DNA of 64,000 nucleotides from Clostridiales bacterium (lineage in GTDB: Bacteria > Bacillota > Clostridia > Saccharofermentanales > Saccharofermentanaceae), in assembly GCA_017617525.1 (NCBI GenBank), contig JAFZWA010000064.1:325-64324 (forward strand). Direction: 5' to 3'. The position numbers were made by a program, and so were the translations under genes. Below are positions 639-63,119 of this stretch, one piece after another (position 1 is the first letter of the stretch; each line of letters begins with the position of its first letter). Below the pieces are notes generated by a model. The model ran no database searches, was not told the DNA's origin, and was given only the letters and a program-made list of their open reading frames with translations.

Positions 639-2837
639 ATGTCGAAAAGCACTTCTCGCGTGATTTCTTTTTCTTCCCCGGCAAAGAGATGGGAAGAGGC
701 GCTTCCGATTGGAAACGGAAGACTCGGCGGCATGGTATTCGGGCTTCCTTATACAGAACGGATCCAGCTCAATGAAGACAGTGTCTGGTACGGAGGCCCT
801 CAGGACAGAAACAATCCGTCCGCGCTTGAGAATCTTCCGAAGATAAGAAAACTCATTCTCGAAGGAAAAATAAGCGAAGCTCAGGAACTCTGTACTTTCG
901 CGCTTTCGGGCATTCCGGAGGAATCCCGTCACTACGAGCCTTTGGGAAATCTCTATATCGAATTTGACGGAACGGAGACGGAATACTCCGATTACAGCCG
1001 AGAACTGGATCTTTCGAACGCGACAGTAACGACGAGCTTTACGATCAGTCGCTCGGTTGATGGTGTTGAAGTTCCGGTGAAATACACCCGTGAGGTGATC
1101 GCGAGCTACCCTCAAAACGCGATGCTCATACATCTCACGGCAGATACGCCCGGCGCGCTGAGTTTTCATGCGCAACTGGGAAGAAACCCGGGAAAGCCCT
1201 GGGAAGAGATCCCGTATCAGAAACAGACATTAAGACGACAGGCATATACCGGATTCTGCGACAGCATCACGGCAAGACCGGGAAATGTCCAGCTGATGGA
1301 AGCGACTGCCGGAGGAAACGGAGTGAAGATGGCCTGCGGTGTAAAGGTCATTTCAAAAGGCGGAACCTCCGAAGTCATCGGCAATACGACACGCATATCG
1401 GAAGCGGACGAAGCAGTTTTGATCCTTTGCGCGGATACGACTTTTCGTGAGGAAGATCCTGTCGCTTCAGTTCTGAAACGTCTGGAGGAGGTTGCTTCGA
1501 ATCAGAAGGAACCATCGGCATTGTGGGAGAACCTTTATTCCGAGCATCTTTCGGACTATACGTCTCTTTACGATCGAGTCAAGCTTCAGATCGACGGACA
1601 GGAAGAGGTCGAGAGGTTCTTCCAGTTCGGCCGTTACCTGATGATCGCGGGATCTCGCCCCGGATCCTTGCCACTGAACCTGCAGGGCATCTGGAATCAG
1701 GACTTTGCTCCGATGTGGGGCAGCCGCTTTACGATTAATATCAATACCGAGATGAACTACTGGCCGGCGATGCTGACGAATCTGGCCGAGTGCCAGGAGC
1801 CATTGATCTCGCACCTTTACCGCATCCGCGAAAACGGCAGGGTCACGGCAGAGAAGATGTACGGCTGTAGGGGCTTTGTTGCGCACCATAACACGGATAT
1901 CTGGGGCGATACCGCGCCGCAAGATATCTGCATCAGTTCGACCTACTGGGTCATGGGCGGCGCCTGGCTCGCGCTTCATGTCTGGGAGCAGTACCTTTTC
2001 ACAAAGGACGTTTCCTTCCTGAATGAAAACTATCCGATCATGAAAGAAGCCGCCGAGTTCGTCATGGATTATCTGATCGATGACGGGAAGTTCCTGGTGA
2101 CGTGCCCGACGCTTTCTCCGGAAAACACATATATCCTTTCCAACGGCGAAAAGGGCGTGATCTGTAAGGGCGCTTCGATGGATAATCAGATCATCACGGA
2201 GCTTCTTAACGCCTGTATTTCTGCGGAAAAAGCACTTGCCTCCGCGATTTTCGATGTCGATGCTCCGATCAGCGAACGCGCAGAAGAAGTGCTTTCGCGT
2301 ATTGCTCCGATCACGATCGGAAAGTACGGGCAGATCATGGAATGGAACGAAGACTACGAAGAAGATGAGCCCGGTCACAGGCACATCTCGCAGCTGTTCG
2401 CGCTCTATCCCGGAACAAGAATCAGTAAGGACAAGACACCTGAACTTTTTGCGGCGGCAAAGAAAACGATCGAGAGAAGGCTTTCTTTCGGTGGCGGACA
2501 TTCGGGCTGGAGTCGCGCCTGGATCATCAATATGTACGCGCGTCTCGGCGAAGGGGAGAAGGCCTTTGAGAACCTGATGACGCTTATTCATAAGCAGACG
2601 CTTCCGAATCTTTTTGACGATCATCCGCCGTTTCAGATCGACGGTAACTTCGGCGCGACGGCCGGTATTGCCGAGATGCTGGTGCAAAGCCATGAAGAAG
2701 AGATCCGCTTCCTTCCCGCGCTTCCCGAAGCGTGGAAAAAGCACGGCCGCGTCGAGGGTCTTCGCCTTCGAGGAGGAAAGACTCTGAAGGTGCTCGAATG
2801 GCAGGACGGTAGGATCGTTGATCTTAAGATCGAATAA
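639..2837 (+). CDS. Glycoside hydrolase family 95 (alpha-L-fucosidase-like)
   Basis: 732-aa ORF. The N-terminus WEEALPIGNGRLGGMVFG...NEDSVWYGGP and the length are typical of GH95. GGAGG RBS upstream of the ATG. Confidence 0.85.
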   Translation: MSKSTSRVISFSSPAKRWEEALPIGNGRLGGMVFGLPYTERIQLNEDSVWYGGPQDRNNPSALENLPKIRKLILEGKISEAQELCTFALSGIPEESRHYEPLGNLYIEFDGTETEYSDYSRELDLSNATVTTSFTISRSVDGVEVPVKYTREVIASYPQNAMLIHLTADTPGALSFHAQLGRNPGKPWEEIPYQKQTLRRQAYTGFCDSITARPGNVQLMEATAGGNGVKMACGVKVISKGGTSEVIGNTTRISEADEAVLILCADTTFREEDPVASVLKRLEEVASNQKEPSALWENLYSEHLSDYTSLYDRVKLQIDGQEEVERFFQFGRYLMIAGSRPGSLPLNLQGIWNQDFAPMWGSRFTININTEMNYWPAMLTNLAECQEPLISHLYRIRENGRVTAEKMYGCRGFVAHHNTDIWGDTAPQDICISSTYWVMGGAWLALHVWEQYLFTKDVSFLNENYPIMKEAAEFVMDYLIDDGKFLVTCPTLSPENTYILSNGEKGVICKGASMDNQIITELLNACISAEKALASAIFDVDAPISERAEEVLSRIAPITIGKYGQIMEWNEDYEEDEPGHRHISQLFALYPGTRISKDKTPELFAAAKKTIERRLSFGGGHSGWSRAWIINMYARLGEGEKAFENLMTLIHKQTLPNLFDDHPPFQIDGNFGATAGIAEMLVQSHEEEIRFLPALPEAWKKHGRVEGLRLRGGKTLKVLEWQDGRIVDLKIE

Positions 2838-2838
2838 A

Positions 2839-2849
2839 GGTGCTTTTCG
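2839..2849 (+). repeat. Dispersed word RGTGCTTTTCG, intergenic copy
   Basis: GGTGCTTTTCG begins 2 nt after the GH95 TAA stop (2835-2837). Confidence 0.9.
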
Positions 2850-2957
2850 CGAAGAGGAAAAACTTGAAAACGTCCCCTCAAGTGCGCTAAACCGCTGGAA
2901 TTCCGCCCTCATCTTTGCTACTATAAAACTGTTGTTAAGTAGAGGGGGGTAAATCAT

Positions 2958-4511: not shown

Positions 4512-4536
4512 TCGTTTCTTTGAAGAAAGCAAATAG

Positions 4537-4569
4537 AAAGGACTGTCCGTTTGGGCAGTCCTTTTTTTC
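4537..4569. terminator. Bidirectional rho-independent terminator between putP and the radical SAM gene
   Basis: GGACTGTCC / GGGCAGTCC stem (4540-4548 / 4553-4561), flanked by an A-run on the left and a T-run (4562-4568) on the right. Confidence 0.85.
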
Positions 4570-4573
4570 TTCT

Positions 4574-4584
4574 CGAAAAGCACT
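4574..4584 (-). repeat. Dispersed word RGTGCTTTTCG, intergenic copy
   Basis: Minus-strand AGTGCTTTTCG begins immediately after the radical SAM gene TAA stop (4587-4585). Confidence 0.9.
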
Positions 4585-7390: not shown

Positions 7391-7912
7391 ATGAACCGCT
7401 ACGAGACTACTCTCTGCTATATTTACGGACCTCAAGGGATCTTGATGATGCACCGTACGAAAAAAGAGAATGACATCAATAAAGATAAGTACATCGGTGT
7501 CGGCGGACATCTCGAGCACGGAGAATCGCCGGAAGAATGCGTCCTTCGTGAAGTAAAAGAGGAGACAGGTCTGACCATGACGTCTTTCCGCCTTCGCGGT
7601 ATCATCACGTTTGTCATCGACGAGATCGACGAGATCACGTTCCTTTATACCTGCGACGGATACGAAGGAAATGTCCCGGGGACAGGTGCTTTTGCCGAAG
7701 AAAAAGGCGAAGACCTTTCCGACTGCAGCGAAGGAGAGCTTGTCTGGATCGCTGAGGACAAGGTCGAAGAACTCCCGATCTGGCCCGGAGATAAGATATT
7801 CTTCCGACTCTTAAAGGAAAGAGAAGAAGTATTCTCTCTAAAACTTACTTATATAAAAGATGAGCTCGTCGATGCGGCGGTAGATGGAAAGAAGATCGAT
7901 TTTGTAGTATAA
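7391..7912 (+). CDS. NUDIX hydrolase (MutT-like)
   Basis: Nudix box GGHLEHGESPEECVLREVKEETGL. Confidence 0.85.
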   Translation: MNRYETTLCYIYGPQGILMMHRTKKENDINKDKYIGVGGHLEHGESPEECVLREVKEETGLTMTSFRLRGIITFVIDEIDEITFLYTCDGYEGNVPGTGAFAEEKGEDLSDCSEGELVWIAEDKVEELPIWPGDKIFFRLLKEREEVFSLKLTYIKDELVDAAVDGKKIDFVV

Positions 7913-11040: not shown

Positions 11041-12147
11041 TTGAGAAGGAAGTCCCGTTTTCTGGCTATATTTCTGATCATTGCGCTCCTTTGCTCATGT
11101 AATGACACGAGCAAGGACAAAAACACCTCCAATTCTCCGGTATCTTCCGAAAATTCGGTTTCGACAGAGAGCACGGTCCCGTCAACACCGACGCCGACCC
11201 CTCTTCCGACCGATACGCCGACTCCGACACCGACTCCCGAACCGACGCCGACTGAGATCAAGATCAGTTTTATCGGCGATACCACGCTCGGCGAACAGCG
11301 CGTGCATATGGGCCAGTCCTATTGCTTTACTTCAACCGTCGGGGACAATTTCTCCTATCCTTTTTCAAAAGCACTGCCGTATCTCGAAGCCGATGATATG
11401 ACACTTTGTAATCTCGAGGGACCTTTGACGTCGTCAAATAACCTCCGTCCGGAGCGCGAGATCTACTTAAAGGGCGATCCGAAGTATGTCGAGTGCCTGA
11501 AACTGGGAAGTGTCGAGTGCTGTAACCTTGCCAATAACCATATGCTCGACTATACCGAGGAAGGCCACCTGGAGACCAGAAAGGTCTTAGAAGACGCCGG
11601 GATCGTATGGAGCGACAACAGTTACTACAATGTTTATGAGGTAAAGGGCGTTAAGATCGGTATGGCCGGCTTTAACTTCACTTACGAAAGATCCCTTTAC
11701 TATAACGCGATCGATGTCCTGCGCGAAAAGGGCTGCGACATCGTCATCATCTCCTGTCATATCGGTGTTGAGAGAATGTACGAGCCGGAAGCGGCGGCGG
11801 TCGAACTTGCCCATGACATCATCGACTACGGCGCGGATATCTATGTCGGATCTCATCCGCACAGACTGCAGCCGGTCGAATACTATAACGGGAAATACAT
11901 CATCTATAGTGAATCGAACTTCTGCTTCGGCGGTCAGCCGTGGCTTTCCGATCCGGATACGGCGATCTTCCAGTGTACCTTCTCGGTATTCGAAGGAAAG
12001 GTCGTCGGAAACCGCATGGAGTGCATCCCGTTTTCGATGAGATCGTCCTCCTCGGGCAACGACTATTGCCCGATGCCCTACGAGAAGGGGACAGAGGAGT
12101 ATGACCGCGTTATGGAGAAGCTCCACTGGTCGGACGAAAACGAGTAG
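11041..12147 (+). CDS. CapA/PGA-cap family metallophosphatase-like lipoprotein
   Basis: TTG start behind GAGGTGA. Signal peptide with Cys (LLCSC), a Thr/Pro linker, then CNLEGPLT...NLANNHMLDY...GSHPH motifs of the CapA family. Confidence 0.75.
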   Translation: MRRKSRFLAIFLIIALLCSCNDTSKDKNTSNSPVSSENSVSTESTVPSTPTPTPLPTDTPTPTPTPEPTPTEIKISFIGDTTLGEQRVHMGQSYCFTSTVGDNFSYPFSKALPYLEADDMTLCNLEGPLTSSNNLRPEREIYLKGDPKYVECLKLGSVECCNLANNHMLDYTEEGHLETRKVLEDAGIVWSDNSYYNVYEVKGVKIGMAGFNFTYERSLYYNAIDVLREKGCDIVIISCHIGVERMYEPEAAAVELAHDIIDYGADIYVGSHPHRLQPVEYYNGKYIIYSESNFCFGGQPWLSDPDTAIFQCTFSVFEGKVVGNRMECIPFSMRSSSSGNDYCPMPYEKGTEEYDRVMEKLHWSDENE

Positions 12148-12213: not shown

Positions 12214-12262
12214 AAGTGCTTTTGCGGAAAAATCAAAAAATCTAATGTCCGTGAAAGCACTT
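12214..12262. repeat. Inverted pair of degenerate word copies between the capA-like gene and purE
   Basis: AAGTGCTTTTG (12214-12224) and GAAAGCACTT (12253-12262). Confidence 0.7.
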
Positions 12263-14252: not shown

Positions 14253-14870
14253 ATGAAGATAGCAGTTTTTGTCAGCGGCGGCGGTACGAACCTGCAGGCG
14301 ATCATCGATAAGATCGCAAGCGGAGAGATCCGAAATGTAGAGATCTCCGAAGTCATCGCGAGCAACGAAAGTGCTTTTGCCATCGAAAGAGCAAAGAAGG
14401 CGGGGATCCCGAGCAAAGTCATCAGTAAGAAAGTGCTCGGAGACGATTACGACGATGCCACACTTACCGAGCTCAACAGTCTCGGTGTGGATCTGGTCGT
14501 TCTGGCAGGATTCCTCTCCATGCTCGGTCCGAAAACAGTTGCGGCTTACGCAAACCGCATTATCAATATCCACCCGGCTCTGATCCCGGCATTCTGCGGT
14601 AAGGGCATGTATGGTATCCGCCCGCACGAAGCCGTTCTGGCTAAGGGCGTAAAAGTGTCCGGCGCGACGGTGCATTTCGTAAATGAGCATTACGACGAAG
14701 GCCCGATCATTTTGCAGAAGGCCGTCGACGTAAGAGAAGACGACACACCGGAAACACTTCAGAAGCGCATCATGGTGGAATGTGAACAGGTTATCCTCCC
14801 GAAAGCGATCCAGCTCATCGCCGACGGTAAGATCGAAGTAGTTAATAATTTGGTTAGAACCAAAAAGTAA
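14253..14870 (+). CDS. purN: Phosphoribosylglycinamide formyltransferase
   Basis: MKIAVFVSGGGTNLQAII...INIHPALIP...GATVHFV. Start at ATG 14253 behind AAGGAG; the ORF track begins upstream at 14094 inside purF. Confidence 0.93.
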   Translation: MKIAVFVSGGGTNLQAIIDKIASGEIRNVEISEVIASNESAFAIERAKKAGIPSKVISKKVLGDDYDDATLTELNSLGVDLVVLAGFLSMLGPKTVAAYANRIINIHPALIPAFCGKGMYGIRPHEAVLAKGVKVSGATVHFVNEHYDEGPIILQKAVDVREDDTPETLQKRIMVECEQVILPKAIQLIADGKIEVVNNLVRTKK

Positions 14871-16451: not shown

Positions 16452-16475
16452 GTGCTTTCCCCAAGGTAAAAGCAC
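16452..16475. repeat. Inverted pair of degenerate word copies after the purH stop
   Basis: GTGCTTT (16452-16458), 10-nt loop, AAAGCAC (16469-16475). Begins 15 nt after the purH TGA stop. Confidence 0.8.
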
Positions 16476-17516: not shown

Positions 17517-17527
17517 AGTGCTTTTCC
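17517..17527 (+). repeat. Dispersed word, long-form copy in the purD leader
   Basis: AGTGCTTTTCC, within GTCGGTGAGAAGTGCTTTTCCCGCCGATGGAAT, 16 nt after the TATAAT. Confidence 0.9.
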
Positions 17528-18830: not shown

Positions 18831-18841
18831 AGTGCTTTTCG
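18831..18841 (+). repeat. Dispersed word RGTGCTTTTCG, intergenic copy
   Basis: AGTGCTTTTCG begins 13 nt after the purD TGA stop. Confidence 0.9.
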
Positions 18842-20068: not shown

Positions 20069-20137
20069 GAAAGTGCTTCTTGCAAACAAGAATTAATGTG
20101 TATAATGATATTAGATCAATAACCTTGGAGGGTGTAG

Positions 20138-20545: not shown

Positions 20546-21922
20546 TCAGTTGTTGACGATGTTTCGAACCCACATTCCGCTTCGCACCATGAAGAAGCCG
20601 ATCGTCGCTTTGAAGAATTCCAGTGACCTGACGATGGCGACCATCCAGGTGATGCTAAGTGTCGTGTAACGGCTCAGAACGTAGGCGATCAAAACGACGA
20701 CCACCCATGTGTAGACAGCGTCGAAGATCATGGTGACAAACGCGTTTCCGCCTGCTCGTAAGATAAAGTAGGAAGCGTGCGAGTAAGCACACAGCGGCAT
20801 CGTCGCGCCGGCGATCATGATGAAGCCCGTCGCCAGGTGGCGGATATAACTGCTTGTATCGTAAAGAAGCGGGAAGAAGGGCGCGATACCGACCATGACG
20901 ATACCGAACACCAGACCGCAGAGCACGGTGAAACGACGCATCTTATATGCCGTTTTCTTCGCGTCGGAAAGATCTCCGCTTCCGAGGATGTGACCCATAA
21001 CGATACCGACGGCTTCACCCATCGCGATGAACGAAACGCCCATCAGGTTCCAGATGGTGGATTCGATGTTGATCGCGGCGACCGCGTCGAGGCTTCTATA
21101 GGAATAGCACTGGTTGATAACGGTCATGCCGAGTGCCCAGAGAGTCTCGTTACCCATGAGCGGAAGTGCTTTTACGATAAACTTACGGGCAAGTTCGCGA
21201 GGAACTTTAAAGCTGGAAAATGCGCCGCGGATGAACGGGAACTTGTCTGAGTGTGTAGCTGTATAGATCACCAGGATCGCGAGCTCCACAAAACGGGAGA
21301 TGACGGTCGCGATCGCGGCACCGACTGCGCCGAGAGCAGGAAGTCCGAACATACCATAAATGAGAAGGGCGTTACCAACGAGGTTAACGACGATCGCGCA
21401 AAGGGAAGCGACCATCGGGACCTTGGTCTTGCCGAGATCTTTCAGAGTGCCGGCATATGCCTGTGTCAGACCGATCGGGATCAGTGAGGCGAGCATGACA
21501 TGGATGTAGTCAACGCCGATATCCAGGATCTCTGCGGCATCCGCGGGATCACCTTCGCCATGGAGGAACAGCTCGACCAGGAAAGGAGCGGCGATCACAA
21601 ACGCGATGATGCTAAGTGCTGAAAGGATCGTATTGAGGATGATCTTAAAGCGGAACGAGTAGCGGATGCCCTCGGTATCGCCCTTGCCGTGATACTGCGC
21701 AGTAAAGATACCCACACCGGCGGTCGCGCCGAAGATGAGAAGATAGAACACGAAGATCAGCTGGTTGGCGATAGCCACGCCGGAGATCGCGTTCGTTCCC
21801 AGATCACCGATCATGAGATTGTCCAGAAGGTTGACGAAATTAGAGATGCCGTTCTGGATCATCATCGGGATGGCGATCATGAGAAGCTTCTTATATTGAT
21901 TTTTATCTTCTTTTAGTGTCAC
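20546..21922 (-). CDS. MATE-family efflux transporter
   Basis: 458 aa, 12-TM pattern, N-terminus KKLLMIAIPMMIQNGISNFVNLLDNLMIG. GTG start. Confidence 0.85.
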   Translation of the reverse strand: MTLKEDKNQYKKLLMIAIPMMIQNGISNFVNLLDNLMIGDLGTNAISGVAIANQLIFVFYLLIFGATAGVGIFTAQYHGKGDTEGIRYSFRFKIILNTILSALSIIAFVIAAPFLVELFLHGEGDPADAAEILDIGVDYIHVMLASLIPIGLTQAYAGTLKDLGKTKVPMVASLCAIVVNLVGNALLIYGMFGLPALGAVGAAIATVISRFVELAILVIYTATHSDKFPFIRGAFSSFKVPRELARKFIVKALPLMGNETLWALGMTVINQCYSYRSLDAVAAINIESTIWNLMGVSFIAMGEAVGIVMGHILGSGDLSDAKKTAYKMRRFTVLCGLVFGIVMVGIAPFFPLLYDTSSYIRHLATGFIMIAGATMPLCAYSHASYFILRAGGNAFVTMIFDAVYTWVVVVLIAYVLSRYTTLSITWMVAIVRSLEFFKATIGFFMVRSGMWVRNIVNN

Positions 21923-22018: not shown

Positions 22019-22029
22019 GGTGCTTTTCG
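22019..22029 (+). repeat. Dispersed word RGTGCTTTTCG, intergenic copy
   Basis: GGTGCTTTTCG in the 408-bp MATE / padR intergenic region. Confidence 0.9.
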
Positions 22030-27094: not shown

Positions 27095-27105
27095 CGAAAA
27101 GCACT
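27095..27105 (-). repeat. Dispersed word RGTGCTTTTCG, intergenic copy (antisense to the operon)
   Basis: Plus strand reads CGAAAAGCACT, 10 nt after the permease TAA stop. Confidence 0.9.
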
Positions 27106-30473: not shown

Positions 30474-30484
30474 AGTGCTTTTCC
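30474..30484 (+). repeat. Dispersed word, long-form copy in the TerB-like gene leader
   Basis: AGTGCTTTTCC, within GTCGGAAAGAAAAGTGCTTTTCCCGACGATTTAAT. Confidence 0.9.
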
Positions 30485-35529: not shown

Positions 35530-35581
35530 CGTGTATGGGAAACAAAGGTGCTTTTTTGGCACGAAGTGGAGGTATTTTTTT

Positions 35582-37920: not shown

Positions 37921-37943
37921 GTGCTTTGAAAGGACAGTAATCG

Positions 37944-41651: not shown

Positions 41652-41662
41652 AGTGCTTTTCA
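41652..41662 (+). repeat. Dispersed word, intergenic copy
   Basis: AGTGCTTTTCA begins 7 nt after the fused ABC gene TAA stop. Confidence 0.9.
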
Positions 41663-41684
41663 AAACAGAATATCCTTAAAGCAC
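41653..41684. repeat. Inverted pair of word copies after the fused ABC gene stop
   Basis: GTGCTTT (41653-41659), 18-nt loop, AAAGCAC (41678-41684). Confidence 0.8.
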
Positions 41685-41815: not shown

Positions 41816-42814
41816 ATGTTGGATATTGATAGAAACAATTCTCATACATTACAGGAACTTTTCGACTTCCTCAAAGGGAAGAAAGTCTATGTGCAGACGC
41901 ATAACTTCCCGGATCCTGACGCGATCGGCGCGGCATTCGGCCTTCAGCAGCTGCTTTTGCATTACGGTATCGAATCAACACTTTGCTATCACGGCAAGAT
42001 CGACCGCCTCAACACCCGAAAGATGGTCGAGTATCTAGGCATCGACATTTATTCCAAAGACGATATTACCGATATGGGAGAAAATGATCCCATTATATGC
42101 GTAGACTCGCAGAAAAACAGCGGAAATATAATCGATCTTCTCGGCGATGAAATTGCCTGTGTCGATCATCATCCTACAATGAATGAAGTGGGTTACTTCT
42201 ATAAAGATGTACGCATGGTAGGATCCTGCTGTACACAGGTCGCCTTGTACTTTATGGATCTCGGTATCATGCCCGATCAGAAGACAGGAACCGCTTTGAT
42301 GTTCGGTCTTCAGATGGACACGAACGGATTTACGAGAGGTGTTACGGACGACGATGTCCGGGCCTTCGGTTTCCTGCATCATATTGCCGATCCGGATGCG
42401 CTTGGAAGACTCGGACAGACTGAAATGGAGTTTACGGATCTTCGCGCGTATGGCGCCGCGATCTCGAGCACGCAGATCTTCGATAAGGTCGGGCTTGCGT
42501 TTATTCCTTTTGCCTGTCAGGACGCGCTGATCGCCATTACCTGTGACTTTATCCTTTCTCTGGATGAAGTCGATATCGCGATCGTTTATTCGAAGCGTCC
42601 CGACGGATACAAGATCTCCGTTCGCGCAGAGACTTTCCTCAATAATATCGACTGCGGTAAGATCGCCGCAAAAGCACTTGAAGGCATCGGAAACGGTGGC
42701 GGTCACCCGTATATGGCCGGCGGCTTTATTCCTACGGAAGGTGTAAAGGCACTTGGAAATAACCCGGATGAAGCCTTGATCGAGCGATTTTTGAAGGTGA
42801 TCGGAGAAGCATGA
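41816..42814 (+). CDS. DHH/DHHA1-family phosphoesterase (NrnA-like)
   Basis: HNFPDPDAIG, CVDHHPT (DHH) and GNGGGHPYMAGG (DHHA1 GGGH). Confidence 0.85.
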   Translation: MLDIDRNNSHTLQELFDFLKGKKVYVQTHNFPDPDAIGAAFGLQQLLLHYGIESTLCYHGKIDRLNTRKMVEYLGIDIYSKDDITDMGENDPIICVDSQKNSGNIIDLLGDEIACVDHHPTMNEVGYFYKDVRMVGSCCTQVALYFMDLGIMPDQKTGTALMFGLQMDTNGFTRGVTDDDVRAFGFLHHIADPDALGRLGQTEMEFTDLRAYGAAISSTQIFDKVGLAFIPFACQDALIAITCDFILSLDEVDIAIVYSKRPDGYKISVRAETFLNNIDCGKIAAKALEGIGNGGGHPYMAGGFIPTEGVKALGNNPDEALIERFLKVIGEA

Positions 42815-46229: not shown

Positions 46230-47237
46230 ATGGGTGAAGTGAAAGCAGAATTGGTAACGAGAAGTAAACGTCCGGGAATGGACTGTACTCTTGATATCTA
46301 TCACGAGAAGACCGTCGGCTTTTCCAAGAATATCAATGACCATTCGACCTATAAGCTGGTCCTTGTCGACGAGGGTTCTTTTGTTGTGGAAGAGGACGGA
46401 AAATACCGTGTCGTCGTCGCGCCGGCAGGCATCGCGATGAATGAAAAAGCGGAGTTTAAAGTCGTTTCGGAAAGCGGAATCAAAACGCGGACGATCTTCT
46501 TTAAGCCTTCCGTATTACGTGAAGAATTCACCATCGAAGCGATCAATTCCGGGTTGTTTGAAAAGTTTTTAAGCGCTGTCAAAAGCACTGATGAACTGTC
46601 ATACGATGAAAGATTTGTAAAGGCGGTCTTTGAAGATACGAAGTTCGAAGAGTGCTTTTCGAGCAAGATGGTGTATCAGGACGCGCTTTTGCTTCTGGAT
46701 TTTATCCGTCCTGACCGAAACATTATCTACTATTCTCTGATGCGCCAGGTCTACGATTCTTTACGCGGAATGGTCGTCAGCGTTGCCTACGATATCGAGC
46801 AGCAGCCGGATAACTTCTGGATCCTTCGTGCCAGACATTTTCTTTCTTCGATCCTTTTTATGTCGGTGGCCGACTTTTACAGACCTTACCGCCAGTGCGA
46901 AGTCTATAAGGATCCTCTCGTGGCACGAGTCGCCAGGTATTTCTGGGAGAATATCTCGGAAGAGATCACACTGGAATCTGTTCTTAAGAAGTATTCGGTG
47001 AATAAGAACATACTGAACGACGCGTTTAACAAAGAACTCGATATGTCCTGCATGAGCTATCTTGAGCACCTGAGGATGAGTGTCGCAAAGGCCGATCTGC
47101 AGTATTTTGACGATCCGATCAGCGAGGTCAGCGTTAATTGCGGCTACAGTGATACAAACTATTTTTCCAAGGTCTTCAAGAAGCATACCGGCATGACTCC
47201 TTCGGAATATCGAAAGAACATGAAAGATCTGTGCTGA
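46230..47237 (+). CDS. AraC-family transcriptional regulator
   Basis: C-terminal HTH region ISEVSVNCGYSDTNYFSKVFKKHTGMTPSEYR. Confidence 0.88.
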   Translation: MGEVKAELVTRSKRPGMDCTLDIYHEKTVGFSKNINDHSTYKLVLVDEGSFVVEEDGKYRVVVAPAGIAMNEKAEFKVVSESGIKTRTIFFKPSVLREEFTIEAINSGLFEKFLSAVKSTDELSYDERFVKAVFEDTKFEECFSSKMVYQDALLLLDFIRPDRNIIYYSLMRQVYDSLRGMVVSVAYDIEQQPDNFWILRARHFLSSILFMSVADFYRPYRQCEVYKDPLVARVARYFWENISEEITLESVLKKYSVNKNILNDAFNKELDMSCMSYLEHLRMSVAKADLQYFDDPISEVSVNCGYSDTNYFSKVFKKHTGMTPSEYRKNMKDLC

Positions 47238-47323: not shown

Positions 47324-48484
47324 ATGAAAAAAGCACTTATTTCAATTGTCTCAATTATCCTTGCTGCAGGCATTATGGGTGGATGTGGAAAGAAAAATGA
47401 TTCATCTGAATCGAAGATAGAGACCGAATCCACCTATGAGGCTCAGCACAAGACTGAACATGAAGTCGTTACGGTTACGGATGGTGTCATGCCGCAGGTG
47501 ATCGAAAAGAACGTTACCTACGTTCAGAAAGAAAAGGACGGGGAATGGGAAGTCGAGAGTTCCGAGATCGTCAACTGGAATACGACCGAGGATTTCGTCA
47601 TCCTTGATACAGTATGGTTCATGGAGACGGACGACGCCGCTTCGAGCTTTACTTATCTGGATGATTCGTATTCCGGTAAAAAAGCAACTGTCTGCCTGAA
47701 ATTTCACGATGACCTTTTCAGTACGGACTTTTCCGTGGATAAGGATCCTGACGGTACACCGAAACTTCACGTGTCCTTGAGTATGCACGGCGATATCATC
47801 GTCGACTGTGACGGGGAAAAGCTTTACCTTAAAGATATCAAGATCAAGGGCTGTGATGCCTATGAGAATGGCACGGCACATACCTTTGTCGACTGCGGAA
47901 ACGGTGATGATACGCTCTATGTGCCGACTGACGTAAGACAGGGAACAATAGACGAATATCTTTCCTTTGTTCCGAGTCTTGAAGATCGTATCCGAGCGGA
48001 ATCCGATACATATATCGATCTTATCTCCTTTGATCAGCTGCCGAAATTCGAAGTCACATCTCCGAACGTTACTGACGGCAAGTGGGACGTAAAGATCACC
48101 AATACGAAATATGGCGAAAACATCTCTCCGGAGCTTTCCTGGGAAGCGGTAGACGGCGCGACGAACTATGTCGTTATCATGCTCGACGGATCGTGGCTGC
48201 ACATGGATGTATTTACGACGGAAACACATCTGCAGGAAGGTGCTTTTACAAAAGGAGAAAGAGGAGAGCAGTACGTCGGACCGTATCCGCCGTCCGGAAC
48301 ACACACCTATTCCATCTTCGTATTCGCGCTGAAAGGCGAGATGAGCAGGGCAGATTGGATGTTTGATTCGGGAAACAATTCCACCGACAAGATCTTCAAG
48401 GGCCTGGATGAGGACAAGGACGGAAATACAGGAAATGTACTTGCGTACGGAAGGCTGGACGGAAACTATACACATCAGGACTAA
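47324..48484 (+). CDS. Lipoprotein with C-terminal YbhB/YbcL (PEBP) family domain
   Basis: Lipobox AAGIMGGCG. The C-terminal region ISPELSWEAVDGATNYVVIMLD...YVGPYPPSGTHTYSIFVFAL is typical of bacterial PEBP. Confidence 0.75.
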   Translation: MKKALISIVSIILAAGIMGGCGKKNDSSESKIETESTYEAQHKTEHEVVTVTDGVMPQVIEKNVTYVQKEKDGEWEVESSEIVNWNTTEDFVILDTVWFMETDDAASSFTYLDDSYSGKKATVCLKFHDDLFSTDFSVDKDPDGTPKLHVSLSMHGDIIVDCDGEKLYLKDIKIKGCDAYENGTAHTFVDCGNGDDTLYVPTDVRQGTIDEYLSFVPSLEDRIRAESDTYIDLISFDQLPKFEVTSPNVTDGKWDVKITNTKYGENISPELSWEAVDGATNYVVIMLDGSWLHMDVFTTETHLQEGAFTKGERGEQYVGPYPPSGTHTYSIFVFALKGEMSRADWMFDSGNNSTDKIFKGLDEDKDGNTGNVLAYGRLDGNYTHQD

Positions 48485-48533: not shown

Positions 48534-49136
48534 ATGATCAAAAACGTCGTACTTGATATGGGAAATGTGCTTTTGGATTATAATCCGGATTTCGTTCTGG
48601 ACCAATTCTGTTCTTCGGAAGAGGAGAAGGCCGTGATCCGAAAAGAACTTTTCGACGGACCCGAGTGGCAGCTTGGAGACCGCGGGGATATCAAGGACAA
48701 GGACAGATTCGACCTCGTGAAGGTGAGAGTGCCAAAAAAGTACCATGAAGCGCTTCGTAACTGCTGCGACAGATGGGATATCTGCATGAATCCTTTAGAA
48801 GGCGCAAGAGAGTTCTGCGAGCACGTAAAAAAGGCAGGTCTCGGAATTTACGTGCTGTCAAATGCCAGTGATCTGTTCTATACGTATTTTCCCAAGTTCC
48901 TTCCTTTGGATTTCTTTAACGGCGTATTTGTTTCTTCGGACTATCTCATGCTGAAGCCGGATCTGGAGATCTACGAGACATTTCTTTCGAAGTATGGCTT
49001 AAATGCGGATGAATGCCTGTTCGTTGATGACCGGAAAGAGAATGTCGAAGGCGCGTCAAAAGCCGGTATGAATACCTTTTGCTTCAAGGGCGATTATGAG
49101 CAAGTGATCGCTCGTATTACTGAACTGAATCAGTAA
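48534..49136 (+). CDS. HAD-family hydrolase
   Basis: N-terminal NVVLDMGNVLL (DxG/DxD-type motif I), VLSNAS (motif II) and FVDDRKENVEGA (motif IV). Confidence 0.8.
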   Translation: MIKNVVLDMGNVLLDYNPDFVLDQFCSSEEEKAVIRKELFDGPEWQLGDRGDIKDKDRFDLVKVRVPKKYHEALRNCCDRWDICMNPLEGAREFCEHVKKAGLGIYVLSNASDLFYTYFPKFLPLDFFNGVFVSSDYLMLKPDLEIYETFLSKYGLNADECLFVDDRKENVEGASKAGMNTFCFKGDYEQVIARITELNQ

Positions 49137-49164: not shown

Positions 49165-49749
49165 TCAGGCCGCGCCGCTTGCTTCTCTGAAGAGATCATT
49201 GAGCTCTTTTGTGGTTTCGAGCGAGATCCAGTTTGAACTGTTGTCGCTGCAGGAGATCTTTTCTCCGGAAGCATATACCGCTGAAACCCTGTATCCGTAT
49301 ATATCCTGGATGCCGTTCGTTTTGTTATGGTTGCCGTTGAGGCGTGAAATACCACCGTCTCTGATGATCTTTTCAAGTTTGATCATGAAATCCTCATCGG
49401 CGGAAAACTCGTAATCGACGGCCTCATCTTCCTCGTACTGTTTTTCGAATCTGTAGCTTCCCGAGCCTTCTTTGGTTTTTAGGTCGACCTCAAATTCGAA
49501 ATAGTACACGCCGTATTCCAGACCTTCATATTCTTCGACTCCTACGGAGGCTATTGTTGAAGATTTAATGGAAAGAGAGATCAGCTCGGTAGACTCGATC
49601 TCTTTAGGCGCGTCCTTATCAACTCGTTTTGTCGATCCGCCTTTAATGTGCGTTGCTTTCGTCTCGCTTTTCTTCTTGCATGCCGTCATGGGACACGCAA
49701 GAAGAAGGCTCAACGCGATGATCAGTATTCTTGAACAGTGCTTTTTCAT
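49165..49749 (-). CDS. Hypothetical lipoprotein
   Basis: Signal peptide with lipobox (LLLACPMTAC). No family recognised. Confidence 0.55.
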   Translation of the reverse strand: MKKHCSRILIIALSLLLACPMTACKKKSETKATHIKGGSTKRVDKDAPKEIESTELISLSIKSSTIASVGVEEYEGLEYGVYYFEFEVDLKTKEGSGSYRFEKQYEEDEAVDYEFSADEDFMIKLEKIIRDGGISRLNGNHNKTNGIQDIYGYRVSAVYASGEKISCSDNSSNWISLETTKELNDLFREASGAA

Positions 49750-50837: not shown

Positions 50838-51626
50838 ATGGAAAAGAGAAGAGTAATCTATTACTCAGACGAGCTCAATGACGAGTTTTCGACCTTCGAT
50901 ACAATACCACCGAAGATCGACGGCTCCTATGATTATGAGCGAAAAGCACTTTCCAAGCGTCTTTCCCGATTCTTCCTATATCGCATCGTGATGTATCCGA
51001 TCGTTGTCTTTTACGGACGGGTGATTTTCGGTCAGAAGATCGTCGGCAAAGAAAAACTGAAGCAGTACAAGAAAAAGGGCTATTTCCTTTACGGAAACCA
51101 CACGCAGCCGTTTGGCGACGCGACTCTTCAGACAAGACTTCCCTGGCCGACCAGTACTTTTATCATCGTACATCCGAATAACCTGAATGTTCCCGTTTTC
51201 GGAAAGTGGACGCCCGCACTCGGCGGACTTCCGATCCCGGACGGGATGAGCGCTTACAAGAATTTTCTTGCGGCGATAAGAAACAGGATCTCGGAAGGAC
51301 ACCCGGTCGTGATCTATCCGGAAGCCCATATCTGGCCGTATTACACGAAGATCAGACCGTTCCTTGATACCTCGTTCCGTTATCCGTTGGATCTCGGTGT
51401 GCCGGCTTTCTGTTTCGTAAATACCTACCACAAAAGAAAGTTCAGAAAGAGACCGAAGATGATCACTTATATCGACGGACCTTTCTTCGCGCCGGAAGGA
51501 GAGACGGATATTCATGTAAAGCAGAAGGCGCTTCGTGACCAGGTCTATGACCATATGGTCGAGCTTTCGAAAAACTCGGACGTAGAAGTGATCAAGTACG
51601 TCAGAAAAGAGGTGGCCTGTGCTTAA
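50838..51626 (+). CDS. Lysophospholipid (PlsC-type) acyltransferase family protein
   Basis: YGNHTQPFGD (H-x-D acyltransferase box) and YPEAHIWP. The start is uncertain: ATG 50838 has AGGAG directly adjacent, and the track begins at GTG 50784. Confidence 0.7.
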   Translation: MEKRRVIYYSDELNDEFSTFDTIPPKIDGSYDYERKALSKRLSRFFLYRIVMYPIVVFYGRVIFGQKIVGKEKLKQYKKKGYFLYGNHTQPFGDATLQTRLPWPTSTFIIVHPNNLNVPVFGKWTPALGGLPIPDGMSAYKNFLAAIRNRISEGHPVVIYPEAHIWPYYTKIRPFLDTSFRYPLDLGVPAFCFVNTYHKRKFRKRPKMITYIDGPFFAPEGETDIHVKQKALRDQVYDHMVELSKNSDVEVIKYVRKEVACA

Positions 51627-52455: not shown

Positions 52456-54250
52456 TTTTGTGATCCCGATTTTCTATTCATGTGACGAGAATTTCTTGAA
52501 GTACTGTATGGTCTCGATGTCTTCGCTTCTGAAGAACGCGTCGGCCGAATGTCTTTGCCGTATCTATATTCTGAACACAGATATCTCTGACGAAGCGCAG
52601 AAGAAGTTCCGCGAGCAGCTTGACAGCATGAAGCTTCCCGCGAAATATGAGATCTGTTTTGAGGATGTATCCGATAACTTGAATCTTATCGAGCATGAGT
52701 TCCCGCTTCGTGACTACTACTCGAAAACCACTTACTACAGGCTTCTGATCGCCGATATGCATCCGGAGTACGACAAGGTCATTTATCTTGACGCCGACAC
52801 GATCGTACAGGGCGACATCAGTGCTTTATACAAAGAAGACATCACGGATCACTATCTCGGCGCGTGCCATGAACAGGTCATGGTGCAGATCGATGAATAC
52901 GGTGAGTATGTCGAAAAGTGTCTCGGCATCTCGCGCCATAATTACTTTAATGCCGGCATCCTTCTGATCAACTGCAAAGAGTTCCGCGAAAAGCAGCTCC
53001 TGCACAGATTCCTCGAAGAACTGCACAACTATGATTTCGTTGTTACACAGGATGAGGACTATCTGAACCTGATCACGAAAGATCACGTCAAGTTTCTTGA
53101 TCAGAGATGGAATACCGAGATCTTCAGAGAACCGGAATATCCGATCGAAGAAGCGAACATCATTCACTACATTATGTTCTGCAAGCCCTGGCATTACGAG
53201 GACTGCCCGTACGCGGACATCTACTATTCCTATGCAAAAGCAACGCCCGTTTTCCCCGAGATCGAAGCGGGCATGAAAGCATATACCGACGAGGATCGCG
53301 CGCGTGACAAAAAGGGAGAGGACGAACTTCTTAAGCTTGCGGTCCGCGAGACGAACAGAGAAGACAACTACCTGAGAAGATTGAACCGCGATAAGCGCGC
53401 GAAGGATCGTGTAGAGATCGTTAAGAAGATCGAGGAGTTTGAGCGTGACGGAAGGTTTTTCGAAGATGTCGAGGACGATCCGCCGACAAAGCCGCTGCTT
53501 CCGGACGATATCGATTATCTCCATAAGACGCCGATCGATAAACTCAAGACAAAGGTGGCTTTTGCGCAGGCGCATAAGGTCGTCGATAAACTCATCAAGA
53601 ACAAGCAGCTGATCATCAAGGACATGAAGGGGATTGAGCACTTCCAGAACCTTTCTTCCGGCGCGGTCATTACCTGCAATCACTTTAACGCTTTCGACAG
53701 CTTCATCATCCAGCTTGTATATGAGGCGGCAAAACAGAAGAAGCGCACGTTCTATCGTGTTATCAGAGAAGGTAACTACACATCCTTCCCGGGATTCTAC
53801 GGTTTCCTGATGAGAAACTGCAATACTCTTCCTTTGTCATCTGATATCCGTACGATGAGAAAGTTCTTCGAGGCGACGAACACGGTCCTTAAGGACGGCC
53901 ACTTCGTTCTTGTATATCCCGAGCAGAGCATGTGGTGGAACTACAGAAAGCCAAAGCCGCTCAAGAACGGTGCTTTTATATTCTCGGCGAAAAACGACGT
54001 ACCGGTACTTCCGTGCTTCATCACGATGAGAGATACGGAGAATATTGGTGAGGACGGATTCCCGATCCAGGAATATACCGTTCATATCTCTGAGCCGATC
54101 TACCCGGATAAATCGCTTCCTTACAAGAAGCAGACAGATCAGCTTCGTAAAGAGAATTACCGCGTCTGGAAAGAGATCTACGAGCGCGAATATCAGATGC
54201 CGCTCGAGTACACAACGATCGACCTGCCGGACTTTGATACATTGAAATAA
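52448..54250 (+). CDS. Fusion protein: N-terminal GT8 glycosyltransferase plus C-terminal PlsC-type acyltransferase
   Basis: IPIFYSCDENF...IYLDADTIV...YFNAGILLIN (GT8), then ITCNHFNAFDSF (HxxxxD) and VYPEQSMWWN (acyltransferase). ATG 52448 behind AAGGAGG. Confidence 0.75.
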   Translation: MADFVIPIFYSCDENFLKYCMVSMSSLLKNASAECLCRIYILNTDISDEAQKKFREQLDSMKLPAKYEICFEDVSDNLNLIEHEFPLRDYYSKTTYYRLLIADMHPEYDKVIYLDADTIVQGDISALYKEDITDHYLGACHEQVMVQIDEYGEYVEKCLGISRHNYFNAGILLINCKEFREKQLLHRFLEELHNYDFVVTQDEDYLNLITKDHVKFLDQRWNTEIFREPEYPIEEANIIHYIMFCKPWHYEDCPYADIYYSYAKATPVFPEIEAGMKAYTDEDRARDKKGEDELLKLAVRETNREDNYLRRLNRDKRAKDRVEIVKKIEEFERDGRFFEDVEDDPPTKPLLPDDIDYLHKTPIDKLKTKVAFAQAHKVVDKLIKNKQLIIKDMKGIEHFQNLSSGAVITCNHFNAFDSFIIQLVYEAAKQKKRTFYRVIREGNYTSFPGFYGFLMRNCNTLPLSSDIRTMRKFFEATNTVLKDGHFVLVYPEQSMWWNYRKPKPLKNGAFIFSAKNDVPVLPCFITMRDTENIGEDGFPIQEYTVHISEPIYPDKSLPYKKQTDQLRKENYRVWKEIYEREYQMPLEYTTIDLPDFDTLK

Positions 54251-58505: not shown

Positions 58506-58516
58506 GGTGCTTTTCA
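58506..58516 (+). repeat. Dispersed word, intergenic copy
   Basis: GGTGCTTTTCA lies between the terminator (58454-58493) and the extended -10 TGATATAAT (58555-58563). Confidence 0.9.
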
Positions 58517-58580
58517 CGTGTAAAAACGGTACGTATTCTTTTTTTTCTGGCGAATGATATAATAACAAAAGAGGGTTGGA

Positions 58581-59528: not shown

Positions 59529-59552
59529 GAGAAAAGGAATGGTTATCCCGGG

Positions 59553-60884: not shown

Positions 60885-60927
60885 ATGTAAACCAGACCCA
60901 AAGCTATTTTATCATGTTTTCTTTTGC

Positions 60928-62052
60928 TTAGGCATAATTCGATTCGACGTATTCATAGATCATACGGGAAACATCACCGATGATCTGGTGGGCTTTTTCC
61001 TCGTCTTTACACTCAGTCATCACGCAGAGTACGTAGTCCTCGTCGGAAAAAACGATGCCGATATCGTTGTATGTGTAGTAGTCAGGGTAGAAGCCGACCT
61101 TGTGCGCGACTTTGACATCAGTGGGAACCCCGGCAGGAACGCCCCAGTTATACTCAGTAGTACAAAGATCATCGATCAGAGGCTGGAAGGTTGTTTTGTT
61201 TTCTTCGTAATCCTGATACAGGTGTTCGGCATACTTAGCCAGATCGATGGCGCTGGTCCTGCGTTTACCGCTCTTTTCCGCACCGGTACAATCCGTATAA
61301 CTGGATGTTCCACGGTAATCGACTGTACAGCTGATGGGCTTGAGAAAATTATCGTTTACAGCATCCTCGCCACCGAGACGACGAAGGATCATGTTGGTGG
61401 CGCAATTGTCACTGATCGTGATACAAAGATTTGAAACTTCCCGGATCGTGTATTCGGTGCCGTTCGCCGAGTTCTGTATCGAACCGGTTCCGCCTTCATA
61501 GTCGCCGTTCGGATATGCGGCCGCGTTATAAGTCATCTTCTCGTCGAGAGAAATCTCACCTTTTGCGATCTTTTCGTAGAGGTACGTATTGTAGGCGATC
61601 TTAATGGTAGATGCCGCTACGATCGGCTGGGTCTCCTTGTAAGCAAGACTTTCACCGTTAGTCATGTTGAGGTAATATACTCCGAAGCGTCCATCCTTCT
61701 TATCGAGATAATCAGCGACCTGCTGCTGAAGTGTATTCAGATTCGCCGCGCGTGTTGCCGCATCTACGGTCTGTATACCGCTTGTGTCAGATTCAGAAGA
61801 AGAGGATCCTTCAACTTCAGGTGCGGTGGATGTGCTTTCAGTACTATATGCCATCGCGGTGTTTTCGTTCGCGGTCGTAGCGACTTTGTTTTTACTGCCT
61901 TGTGAGATGAGTTTGACAACAAAGACGATGCATAAGATCACGCAAAGAAGACATATGGAAAGACAAGAGAGGACGAAGATCTTCCTTCTGTTGTTTCTTC
62001 TTTTTCTGGTTACCGGATAACTGTTATAGCCGGAACGGGCATTATGTTTCAC
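60928..62052 (-). CDS. Membrane-anchored class A beta-lactamase-fold serine hydrolase
   Basis: N-terminal TM helix. STIK (SxxK), SDN (ISDNCATN) and HKVG (KTG-like) motifs. Confidence 0.7.
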   Translation of the reverse strand: MKHNARSGYNSYPVTRKRRNNRRKIFVLSCLSICLLCVILCIVFVVKLISQGSKNKVATTANENTAMAYSTESTSTAPEVEGSSSSESDTSGIQTVDAATRAANLNTLQQQVADYLDKKDGRFGVYYLNMTNGESLAYKETQPIVAASTIKIAYNTYLYEKIAKGEISLDEKMTYNAAAYPNGDYEGGTGSIQNSANGTEYTIREVSNLCITISDNCATNMILRRLGGEDAVNDNFLKPISCTVDYRGTSSYTDCTGAEKSGKRRTSAIDLAKYAEHLYQDYEENKTTFQPLIDDLCTTEYNWGVPAGVPTDVKVAHKVGFYPDYYTYNDIGIVFSDEDYVLCVMTECKDEEKAHQIIGDVSRMIYEYVESNYA

Positions 62053-62069
62053 AATGTAGTTCTCCTCTC

Positions 62070-63119
62070 CTAATCCGTCTTTTTCTTTGCAAGAAAGACT
62101 GTGCAGCGACTTTTGCAGACTTCGATGATCTTGTGATAGATCAATGCGATCACGAACGAAAGTATGAAGATCAGCCAGTTTCTGAGTTGACCTGACACAA
62201 ATGTCAGTTTATCAGACGGATAAACATAGTCGAAGAAGAAATCCGAGACCAAGAGGATCTCCAAAGAAGCGCTTCCAAACTTGCGAAATGTCCATAAAAG
62301 CGCTCCGCATTTCGTCTTGATCTTATCGAAAAGCACTGTCAGGAGGATCGTCAGCGCCGGCGCGATCAGAATGGATGGATACCACCAAAGGCCAAAGGTC
62401 CATAGATAGGAAGGGAAGAAGTACATAAACAGATACAAGGCAACCACTCCCGTAATCAAGGACATCAGACAGATGAGGATATGTCCCGTTCCTACGGATA
62501 CATCCTTTTTGTCCATAAAAACATACATTCCGAAGATATAGATCGGCAGGCGGGAAAAAGCGATGAGTGCCGTCTTTCCGAAGAAAAGAAAGGAGATCAA
62601 AAAGGCGATACACATCAAGATCATGCACACGCGAGACTTGACGCGGGCCTTTTTGAAAAGCAGATAAAGCATCGGAGAAAGCAGGTAGAAAAGCACGATC
62701 GTAAACACATACCAGTTCCCCTGATAGCTCATTTCCAGCCAAAAACCGGTAAATGTGATATGCCCGAGGATCTCCGTTATCGTCGGGGTGACGTTGAAAA
62801 AGCATGTGACAAGGATAAGAAAAACAGGCAGATATGAAAGCCAGATCGGAAGGATCTTTTTTGCGCGATTTTTCGCGAACTGAGAAGTGCTGTTACGGGT
62901 AAGAGATCGCGCGATGCCGTATCCGCTCAAAAAGAGGAATATGTCAGCTCCGCAATAACCGATGGCTTTTATAAACAAAAAGCACACGGAAACAGGTCTC
63001 CAAGGGAAGATCGCAGGAGACAGGGATGAATGGAACCAAACGATCCAGAGTATAGCAAGACCCATCAGTTCCGGACGGAACTTGGTAATATAGTCATTGA
63101 CGGTCTTCTTTTCTGACAT
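62070..63119 (-). CDS. Acyltransferase family 3 (O-acyltransferase) membrane protein
   Basis: 349 aa, about 10 TM helices, N-terminal LAILWIVWFHS typical of acyltransferase_3. Confidence 0.75.
   Translation of the reverse strand: MSEKKTVNDYITKFRPELMGLAILWIVWFHSSLSPAIFPWRPVSVCFLFIKAIGYCGADIFLFLSGYGIARSLTRNSTSQFAKNRAKKILPIWLSYLPVFLILVTCFFNVTPTITEILGHITFTGFWLEMSYQGNWYVFTIVLFYLLSPMLYLLFKKARVKSRVCMILMCIAFLISFLFFGKTALIAFSRLPIYIFGMYVFMDKKDVSVGTGHILICLMSLITGVVALYLFMYFFPSYLWTFGLWWYPSILIAPALTILLTVLFDKIKTKCGALLWTFRKFGSASLEILLVSDFFFDYVYPSDKLTFVSGQLRNWLIFILSFVIALIYHKIIEVCKSRCTVFLAKKKTD

Follow-up and report, generated by a model that had tools for sequence, protein, structure and literature searches.

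The DNA analysed here, referred to as the window, is a stretch of 64,000 nucleotides (positions 325 to 64,324) of contig JAFZWA010000064.1 from a Clostridiales bacterium; coordinates are those of the window unless a locus name precedes them. It carries glycoside hydrolase genes (GH95, GH10 and GH127), B12/radical-SAM and radical-SAM genes, the pur genes purE, purN, purH and purD, a nadD-yqeK gene, MatE and FtsX permease genes, and PGA_cap, AraC-family and acyltransferase-3 genes. Distributed over these genes and the spacers between them is a short, hyper-abundant word with the strict 8-mer core GTGCTTTT (Table 1). When all 7- to 11-mers of the window were scanned against an order-3 Markov model, this word family ranked far above all other words. 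The initial annotation had pointed to the 9-mer GTGCTTTTC, and its 21 copies were recovered with every coordinate and orientation exact; in 100 dinucleotide-preserving shuffles of the window the mean was 0.74 and the maximum 3. As a unit the 9-mer is real but represents only one slice of the signal. The 8-mer core, counted against the order-3 background as had been proposed for the 9-mer, occurs 41 times (4.8 expected), which corresponds to 6.4 copies per 10 kb or about one per 1.5 kb. Its extended forms AGTGCTTTT, AAGTGCTTTT and AGTGCTTTTCG were found in 28, 18 and 10 copies with 1.2, 0.41 and 0.10 expected, while AAAGTGCTTTT explains just 7 of the 41 core copies.

All eight core positions are invariant in a sequence logo built from the 41 window copies as well as in one of 175 distinct copies pooled with those of relatives. 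The base preceding the core is A in 66% of the copies. On the 3′ side a weak S-S-M-R pattern is followed by an A-rich tract at +5 to +9, and further out the flanks contain essentially no information (0.6 bit per position at most). The soft consensus can be given as rrAAGTGCTTTTCG and its fuller form as AAGTGCTTTTCG. For the 9-mer, G as the next base in 13 of the 21 copies was confirmed; the purine said to precede it is present in 19 (15 A, 4 G) and replaced by C in the other two. Any single-base change within the core reduced the count in the window to background. Over-representation was 8.6-, 1.28-, 1.08- and 1.01-fold for zero, one, two and three mismatches, a steep monotonic fall like that published for uptake signal sequences (USS) and DNA uptake sequences (DUS) (PMC1939737, Table 1 therein). 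The word differs from its reverse complement AAAAGCAC and is therefore non-palindromic. Spacing of the copies is somewhat more even than random (coefficient of variation 0.79, P=0.06).

The description as an oriented word did not hold. GC skew is positive over the whole window, and both skew and gene direction identify the plus strand as the leading strand; the core lies 22 times on the plus and 19 times on the minus strand, without global orientation. Relative to the genes, 15 copies are sense, 15 antisense and 11 noncoding, a count that uses purN-purH in place of a shadow open reading frame (ORF) and a purD start near 17565. Provisional gene calls before these two corrections gave 14 sense, 17 antisense and 10 intergenic copies. 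The shadow ORF (window:14130-16433, minus strand, 767 amino acids) is antisense to purN-purH and without Pfam support; purN and purH have strong Pfam matches, and the ORF can mislead the sense/antisense bookkeeping, as at site 14371. Two control words, AAGGGCG (23 sites) and GTATTCGG (12 sites), were 3- to 4-fold enriched and occurred almost exclusively on the sense strand. They match K-G and V-F-G codon contexts and represent ordinary codon-pair effects, with which the strand-neutral word contrasts.

Although 73% of the core copies (30 of 41) reside within genes, noncoding DNA is enriched for them: 11 of the 41 (27%) lie in the approximately 10% of the window that is noncoding (P about 8e-4). 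With the purD start near 17565, the nine GTGCTTTTC copies assigned to noncoding DNA (2840, 4575, 17518, 18832, 22020, 27096, 30475, 41653 and 58507) are indeed noncoding, which is 43% of the 21. Enrichment just past stop codons was likewise borne out. Five exact copies are located no more than 15 nt beyond a stop, with about 0.5 expected, and four of the five are co-oriented with the gene in the context TAA-(A/AG)-GTGC. Three degenerate copies follow purH, nadD-yqeK and GH127 at distances of 15, 4 and 0 nt. Taken together, exact or degenerate copies follow the eight genes listed in the initial annotation within 15 nt, seven of them co-oriented with the gene. The post-stop preference is modest and explicable by the A-rich 5′ flank of the motif, for which the AA of a TAA stop can be reused in unconstrained DNA; this suffices to explain the co-orientation as well. 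Copies are also present in divergent promoter regions.

Selection or drive acts on DNA rather than on peptides, as had been proposed: all reading frames, both strands, spacers and context-dependent synonymous codons are used. The peptide VLF is encoded four times at word copies, as reported. ECFS was found twice, the supposed third occurrence being KCFS, and the antisense peptides summarized as KAL are GKAL, RKAL and GKAR. A codon imprint is evident in the window genes. Of 29 Lys-Ala pairs followed by a Cxx codon, 11 used AAA-GCA, where codon usage predicts 2.6 (P=2e-5); of 13 Val-Leu pairs followed by TTx, 5 used GTG-CTT, where 0.74 are predicted (P=5e-4). The K-A frame is preferred by antisense copies (11 of 16, P=0.01), a figure based on the provisional gene calls and including one site later reassigned to sense.

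To follow the origin of individual copies, those in the 7-28 kb block of the window were aligned to the orthologous positions in relatives. The copies were made in place by base substitution, not by insertion. In the PGA_cap and MatE genes, word-bearing species encode a conserved K-A-L as AAA GCA CTx, and the remaining species encode it with different synonymous codons, as in the change of AAG GCT to AAA GCA. Other copies altered the protein. In purN the word goes with a change of K/R-A-Y/F to S-A-F, and in the FtsX permease it places His where relatives carry Leu, Ile or Phe. Substitutions toward the word replaced A, C or G by T, among others, as when GAGCCTTG became GTGCTTTT. In word-bearing relatives, identity to the window was 0.877 in the core and 0.782 in the 12-bp flanks, which answers the question raised with the 9-mer whether the word rather than its surroundings is conserved; in wordless relatives the values were 0.654 and 0.651. 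Moreover, the intergenic sites 18832 and 27097 retained the core while their flanks were altered by substitutions and indels, and antisense copies were kept in that orientation across species.

The window groups with metagenome-assembled genomes (MAGs) of uncultured ruminant-gut Clostridiales/Oscillospiraceae, some of which are labelled 'Mageeibacillus sp. UBA1193/UBA3781'. Its nearest relative, RGIG7616, shares 94% nucleotide identity over 19.7 kb. The same contig is present in rumen-type metagenome assemblies in ENA; a metagenome scan with the DHH protein returned 2 short loci only. Loci of relatives (numbered L001 and onwards) were collected by a PurD-based scan, one genome per species. Core density was 5.07 per 10 kb in 17 sister species (282 kb), 1.9 in L007, L008 and L041, and 0.81 in the basal sisters L004, L017, L018 and L019, whose PurD proteins are 80-96% identical. 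For 41 more distant Firmicutes and Bacteroidota loci (650 kb) it was 0.68, and for 1 Mb of unrelated viral contigs 0.64; the latter were chance matches of an inverted-pair scan and served solely as a background set. In a neighbour-joining tree of purD the word-rich species form one clade, below which L004 and the other poor species branch. The word is thus lineage-specific and restricted to one rumen Clostridia clade. It extends beyond the aligned DNA: sequences of the relatives without homology to the window contained 4.26 copies per 10 kb, and in the same genome the 9.4 kb preceding the window added 3 copies. At the other end of the window, 2.3 kb of new DNA (L192) contributed 2 copies.

Inverted pairs of the word, at most 60 nt apart and with one mismatch allowed, numbered 11 in the window with 5 expected (P=0.014). 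Four of them form good hairpins (12216/12253, 16452/16468, 41653/41677 and 34300/34323); three lie just downstream of genes, and 34300/34323 lies inside GH10. The first belongs to a hairpin with a 15-bp stem at window:12210-12285, AAGTGCTTTTGCGGA ... TCCGTGAAAGCACTT, followed by TTTTGTTTTATAAT directly upstream of purE. This structure could serve the pur operon, at whose head it lies, as terminator or attenuator. Terminators were also considered as an explanation of the word itself, as the end of a stem plus U-tract, but found no support; most copies are located outside predicted terminators.

Of the three roles offered by the initial annotation, a DNA-uptake or recombination-type genomic signature fits these data best. 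The word may be a genome-wide, lineage-specific 'self' signature of the DUS/USS type, collectively DNA uptake enhancing sequences (DUES), a reading to which we give an even chance. Cells of the clade would take up, or preferentially acquire and recombine, fragments carrying the word. Responsible for this would be a receptor of the competence machinery that binds DNA sequence-specifically; by analogy, a monoderm host could employ a minor pilin, from the competence pseudopilus or a type IV pilus, or a ComEA-like protein. Point mutations that create or improve a copy would then be over-transmitted by homologous recombination, a process of molecular drive whose only check would be protein-coding constraint. 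Copies would pile up on both strands and fastest where constraint is lowest, in spacers, post-stop bases, synonymous sites and tolerant residues. In combination, the abundance of the word, its sharp specificity, strand neutrality, clade restriction, origin by substitution and lineage-specific core conservation match the published DUES profile, which makes molecular drive the most economical mechanism, of which the genomic footprint alone was observed here.

Several comparisons with the known systems are favourable. Genomes with DUS or USS contain 765-1,892 copies, and the core density in the window is within a few-fold of this (PMC2817400). Between 35 and 65% of DUS and USS are intergenic, and the documented properties of DUES comprise a tripeptide/codon imprint, frame bias, dialects and inverted repeats after genes. 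The DUS of Neisseriaceae (core 10-mer GCCGTCTGAA, 12-mer ATGCCGTCTGAA) has at least eight dialects and is bound by the minor pilin ComP as receptor. Like DUS, the word is short and non-palindromic, constitutes a signature at the family or genus level, is found on either strand in genes as well as spacers with noncoding enrichment, and sometimes forms inverted pairs after genes; the steep drop at one mismatch, the origin by point mutation and the reading-frame bias of coding copies are further common features. In contrast to DUS, its sequence is unrelated and its host is a monoderm without outer membrane or secretin. The USS of Pasteurellaceae exists as Hin-type AAGTGCGGT and Apl-type ACAAGCGGT, with ComN/PpdA as predicted receptor. 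With USS the word shares a strict core of 8-9 bp, soft flanks including an A/T-rich tract on the downstream side, a share of about 65% of copies in ORFs and a tripeptide/codon imprint (K-A-L, V-L-F). Both also begin with AAGTGC, a coincidence; the resemblance in sequence is probably due to chance, the hosts being without phylogenetic link. Uptake bias has been demonstrated experimentally for USS, whereas for the word it is proposed from the genomic footprint.

Other observations weigh against a DUES-type signature. No DUES is known outside the two proteobacterial families Neisseriaceae and Pasteurellaceae. The model Gram-positive transformers Bacillus subtilis and Streptococcus pneumoniae show no preference for particular sequences in DNA uptake. 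In the approximately 0.5 Mb sampled, comprising the window and the loci of relatives, no competence or pilin gene was found, and a prepilin-motif regular expression gave no match in any of the sampled DNA. At about 2.8 copies per 10 kb for the full 10-mer, the full 10- to 12-mer is sparser than DUS or USS. About half of DUES sit in canonical terminators, whereas few copies do here; the strong GC-rich terminators of the window lack the word, and only the copy at 4576 abuts one (4535-4566, bidirectional). The sampled relatives represent one syntenic neighbourhood, from which genome-wide abundance is extrapolated. Dialects are not established. GTGCATTT was raised in L041, L005, L015 and L020 and GTTCTTTT in L016 (about 20 kb per species), but an orthology check identified several GTGCATTT sites as ancestral conserved coding sequence that is present in outgroups too, and the evidence for dialects is weak.

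A literature search for the word returned primers only, in agreement with the initial view that it matches no recognised Firmicute element, and no report was found that links uptake-type words to families of Firmicutes or Clostridia. We regard the word as a DUES-like signature in the genome of a Gram-positive lineage of the rumen; its uptake function, itself unproven, is given an even chance. Slightly more tentative is the proposal that this is the first DUS system outside Proteobacteria, in which a genus-level monoderm clade of the rumen would recognize its own DNA via AAGTGCTTTTCG in natural transformation. Textbooks restrict sequence-selective uptake to Neisseriaceae and Pasteurellaceae and describe transformation in Gram-positive bacteria as blind to sequence. 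If a monoderm were added as a third, independent case, recognition of self-DNA through uptake words would be shown to have evolved more than once, and a new receptor class would be implied, that is, a so far unknown sequence-specific receptor in the Gram-positive competence apparatus, as well as frequent recombination within the clade in the rumen. An uncultured lineage of the rumen would moreover be marked as naturally transformable, and including the word in donor DNA would aid its genetic tractability; the word would also allow the limits of gene flow in gut communities to be traced cheaply from genomes. Should the uptake reading prove wrong, some unknown mechanism acting on the whole genome would still be needed to account for a 12-bp word strong enough to alter amino acids, with about one site per 1.5 kb; under the rival readings discussed below, too, the force that writes the word into proteins is unexplained.

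The word could instead be the binding site of an abundant clade-specific DNA-binding protein, each copy being kept by selection for a chromosome-wide function. A nucleoid-organising or segregation factor would be a candidate, as would a defence or repair complex for which the word is a 'self' marker. In its sharp 8-bp core and soft flanks the word resembles a protein recognition site, and the lack of strand bias, the confinement to one clade with loss or weakness in some members, the conservation of the core above its flanks and the mildly even spacing fit as well. However, parS, Noc, SlmA and matS sites number tens per genome, not one per 1.5 kb. Furthermore, selection per site among more than 1,000 redundant sites would be too weak for replacements such as K to S or L/I/F to H, and should not override codon usage, which transmission bias explains more easily. 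We therefore consider this explanation unlikely.

Biased repair or gene conversion, for example by a mismatch endonuclease coupled to a methyltransferase, a process that has been proposed for the cyanobacterial highly iterated palindrome HIP1, might convert near-cognate sites without external DNA. The origin of copies by substitution at pre-existing near-matches and the clade specificity agree with such a process, and hyper-abundant octamers linked to methyltransferases provide a precedent (PMC4390886). HIP1 (GCGATCGC) is likewise a hyper-abundant, lineage-specific octamer of genes and spacers that originates by substitution. Unlike the word, HIP1 forms a perfect palindrome and is associated with orphan methyltransferases; the word is longer than usual methyltransferase sites. 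The conversions run in many ways including toward T, which VSR-type (very short patch) repair of T:G to C:G cannot yield, and one-mismatch variants, which the process would consume, are not depleted (1.28-fold). This renders biased repair quite improbable.

An RNA-level signal at cistron boundaries acting in processing, stability or termination, which the initial annotation had listed as an mRNA processing or stability signal, is very unlikely. It would account for the copies behind eight genes, seven of them co-oriented, for the tenfold excess of exact copies past stops and for the three post-gene hairpins. But three quarters of the copies are intragenic and antisense as often as sense, and because the word has no strand polarity an RNA-level signal cannot be the general explanation. 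Its occurrence in divergent promoter regions, the antisense orientation kept across species and the location of most copies outside predicted terminators contradict it further, and the 5′ AA supplied by TAA suffices for the co-orientation.

The same lack of polarity excludes a Chi-like AddAB/RecBCD hotspot as well as signals of the type of FtsK-orienting polar sequences (KOPS) or SpoIIIE recognition sequences (SRS), which we regard as extremely improbable. Chi and KOPS/SRS octamers are, like the word, over-represented 7- to 8-mers of core genome DNA; the word has a roughly Chi-like density and is present in core genes. Chi and KOPS/SRS signals are strongly co-oriented with replication, yet the skew is uniformly positive and the copies divide 22 to 19; 22 or fewer co-oriented copies under a 75% skew have a probability of 0.002. 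Known Firmicute Chi sites are far less over-represented than this word.

An artefact or trivial cause is almost negligible: the Illumina adaptor end GTGCTCTTCCGATCT superficially resembles GTGCTTTTCCGA and T-rich words are common in AT-rich spacers, but the adaptor variant GTGCTCTT is not enriched, in-frame copies occur inside conserved genes in many independent assemblies, neither order-3 Markov models nor dinucleotide shuffles account for the count, codon or peptide bias is at odds with the use of all frames and both strands, and the uninformative flanks, which do not align into an extended consensus, exclude decayed miniature inverted-repeat transposable elements (MITEs), repetitive extragenic palindromes (REPs) and insertion sequence (IS) remnants, as the initial annotation had held for MITEs and IS remnants, in line with the origin by substitution at orthologous positions and the 73% of copies in genes. 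Among described elements, the catabolite-responsive element cre (CcpA), CIRCE, with which only AGTGCT is common, and the Spo0A box, whose TTCGACA is found in two copies, failed on copy number or exact sequence.

Table 1. Positions of the core word GTGCTTTT and of related copies in the window.
Feature	Position	Strand	Context
core word	645..652	-	antisense in GH95, codons 2-5
core word	2228..2235	-	antisense in GH95
core word	2737..2744	-	antisense in GH95
core word	2840..2847	+	intergenic, 2 nt past GH95 stop (TAA-AG-GTGCTTTTCG)
core word	4576..4583	-	intergenic, 1 nt past B12/radical-SAM stop, co-oriented; abuts bidirectional terminator
core word	7686..7693	+	sense in NUDIX gene
core word	11367..11374	-	antisense in PGA_cap gene; K-A-L = AAA GCA CTx; wordless relatives: synonymous codons
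core word	12216..12223	+	intergenic upstream of purE; 5′ arm of inverted-pair hairpin, then T-run
one-mismatch copy GTGCTTTC	12253..12260	-	3′ arm of 12216 hairpin
core word	14371..14378	+	sense in purN (S-A-F); wordless relatives K/R-A-Y/F, non-synonymous
one-mismatch copy GTGCTTTC	16452..16459	+	15 nt past purH stop; 5′ hairpin arm
core word	16468..16475	-	intergenic; 3′ arm of hairpin after purH
core word	17518..17525	+	upstream of purD, just downstream of TGGTATAAT extended -10; conserved in L001, L003, L021, L052
core word	18832..18839	+	intergenic, 13 nt past purD stop; core kept in L001, L002, L030, flanks with indels
degenerate copy GTGCTTCT	20073..20080	+	4 nt past nadD-yqeK stop
core word	21166..21173	+	antisense in MatE gene (K-A-L = AAA GCA CTT); arose by synonymous changes
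core word	22020..22027	+	intergenic
core word	25908..25915	-	antisense in FtsX permease gene; His codon, Leu, Ile or Phe in relatives
core word	27097..27104	-	intergenic, 11 nt past FtsX stop, inverted relative to gene
core word	29833..29840	+	antisense in gene 29723-30430 (-)
core word	30475..30482	+	intergenic between divergent genes
core word	32049..32056	+	sense (V-L-F)
core word	32840..32847	-	antisense
core word	33464..33471	-	antisense in Fe-ADH gene
core word	34300..34307	+	sense in GH10 (V-L-F); first arm of perfect inverted pair
core word	34323..34330	-	antisense in GH10; second arm of perfect inverted pair, gap 15
core word	35548..35555	+	sense
core word	37071..37078	-	antisense in GH127
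core word	37461..37468	+	sense in GH127 (K-C-F-S)
degenerate copy GTGCTTTG	37921..37928	+	immediately past GH127 stop
core word	38759..38766	+	sense in radical-SAM gene (E-C-F-S)
core word	41653..41660	+	intergenic, 7 nt past fused ABC/FtsX gene stop; 5′ hairpin arm
one-mismatch copy GTGCTTTA	41677..41684	-	3′ arm of 41653 hairpin
core word	42670..42677	-	antisense in DHH-family gene
core word	46581..46588	-	antisense in AraC-family gene
core word	46652..46659	+	sense in AraC-family gene (E-C-F-S)
core word	47329..47336	-	antisense over first codons of gene 47324-48484
core word	48240..48247	+	sense
core word	48567..48574	+	sense in HAD hydrolase gene
core word	49738..49745	+	antisense in gene 49165-49749 (-)
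core word	50942..50949	-	antisense (R-K-A-L)
core word	53970..53977	+	sense in GT8/acyltransferase gene
core word	58507..58514	+	intergenic
core word	62329..62336	-	sense in acyltransferase-3 gene (V-L-F)
core word	62689..62696	-	sense in acyltransferase-3 gene (V-L-F)
core word	62978..62985	-	sense in acyltransferase-3 gene

Other words and repeats were noted in the window and in sister loci. The palindromic 8-mer CGATATCG is raised about 3-fold in the window (22 strand-counts, 7.5 expected), with 11 sites including 12390, 15260, 19096, 24298 and 27391. CCTCGAGG and TCTCGAGA are similarly raised in the sister loci L007, L011, L015 and L020. These words could be traces left by absent restriction systems or, alternatively, by HIP-like effects. 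The basal sister L004 (MAG Firm_16) contains no copy of GTGCTTTT in 21 kb; its top 8-mer is CGCGATCT, found 9 times on both strands with 0.9 expected (for example at L004 positions 1413, 1813 and 4470), an enrichment that is borderline given the 21 kb and the number of words tested. Locus L052 of a sister species harbors two arrays of 81-83 nt tandem repeats (L052:11387-11707 and L052:16104-16351). Each repeat unit contains the hairpin GCTCACCT(A/G)-N8-12-TAGGTGAGC, and the word TAGGTGAG occurs 11 times with 0.1 expected. A clustered regularly interspaced short palindromic repeat (CRISPR) array was rejected in favour of a hairpin tandem repeat of that length, which may be a repeated small-RNA or terminator-like element.

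The flanks of the window in the same genome carry further genes. Just past the right end (L192:1-2045), DnaB_2, a small ORF and YodL/DUF3846 genes suggest the edge of a mobile element, where the assembled contig ends. Upstream of the window (L188:451-2880), a phosphoenolpyruvate (PEP) mutase fused to a cytidylyltransferase is accompanied by a thiamine pyrophosphate (TPP)-dependent decarboxylase. These genes adjoin large YidC-domain and glycerophosphotransferase genes, and their predicted products suggest phosphonate decoration of a cell-wall polymer.

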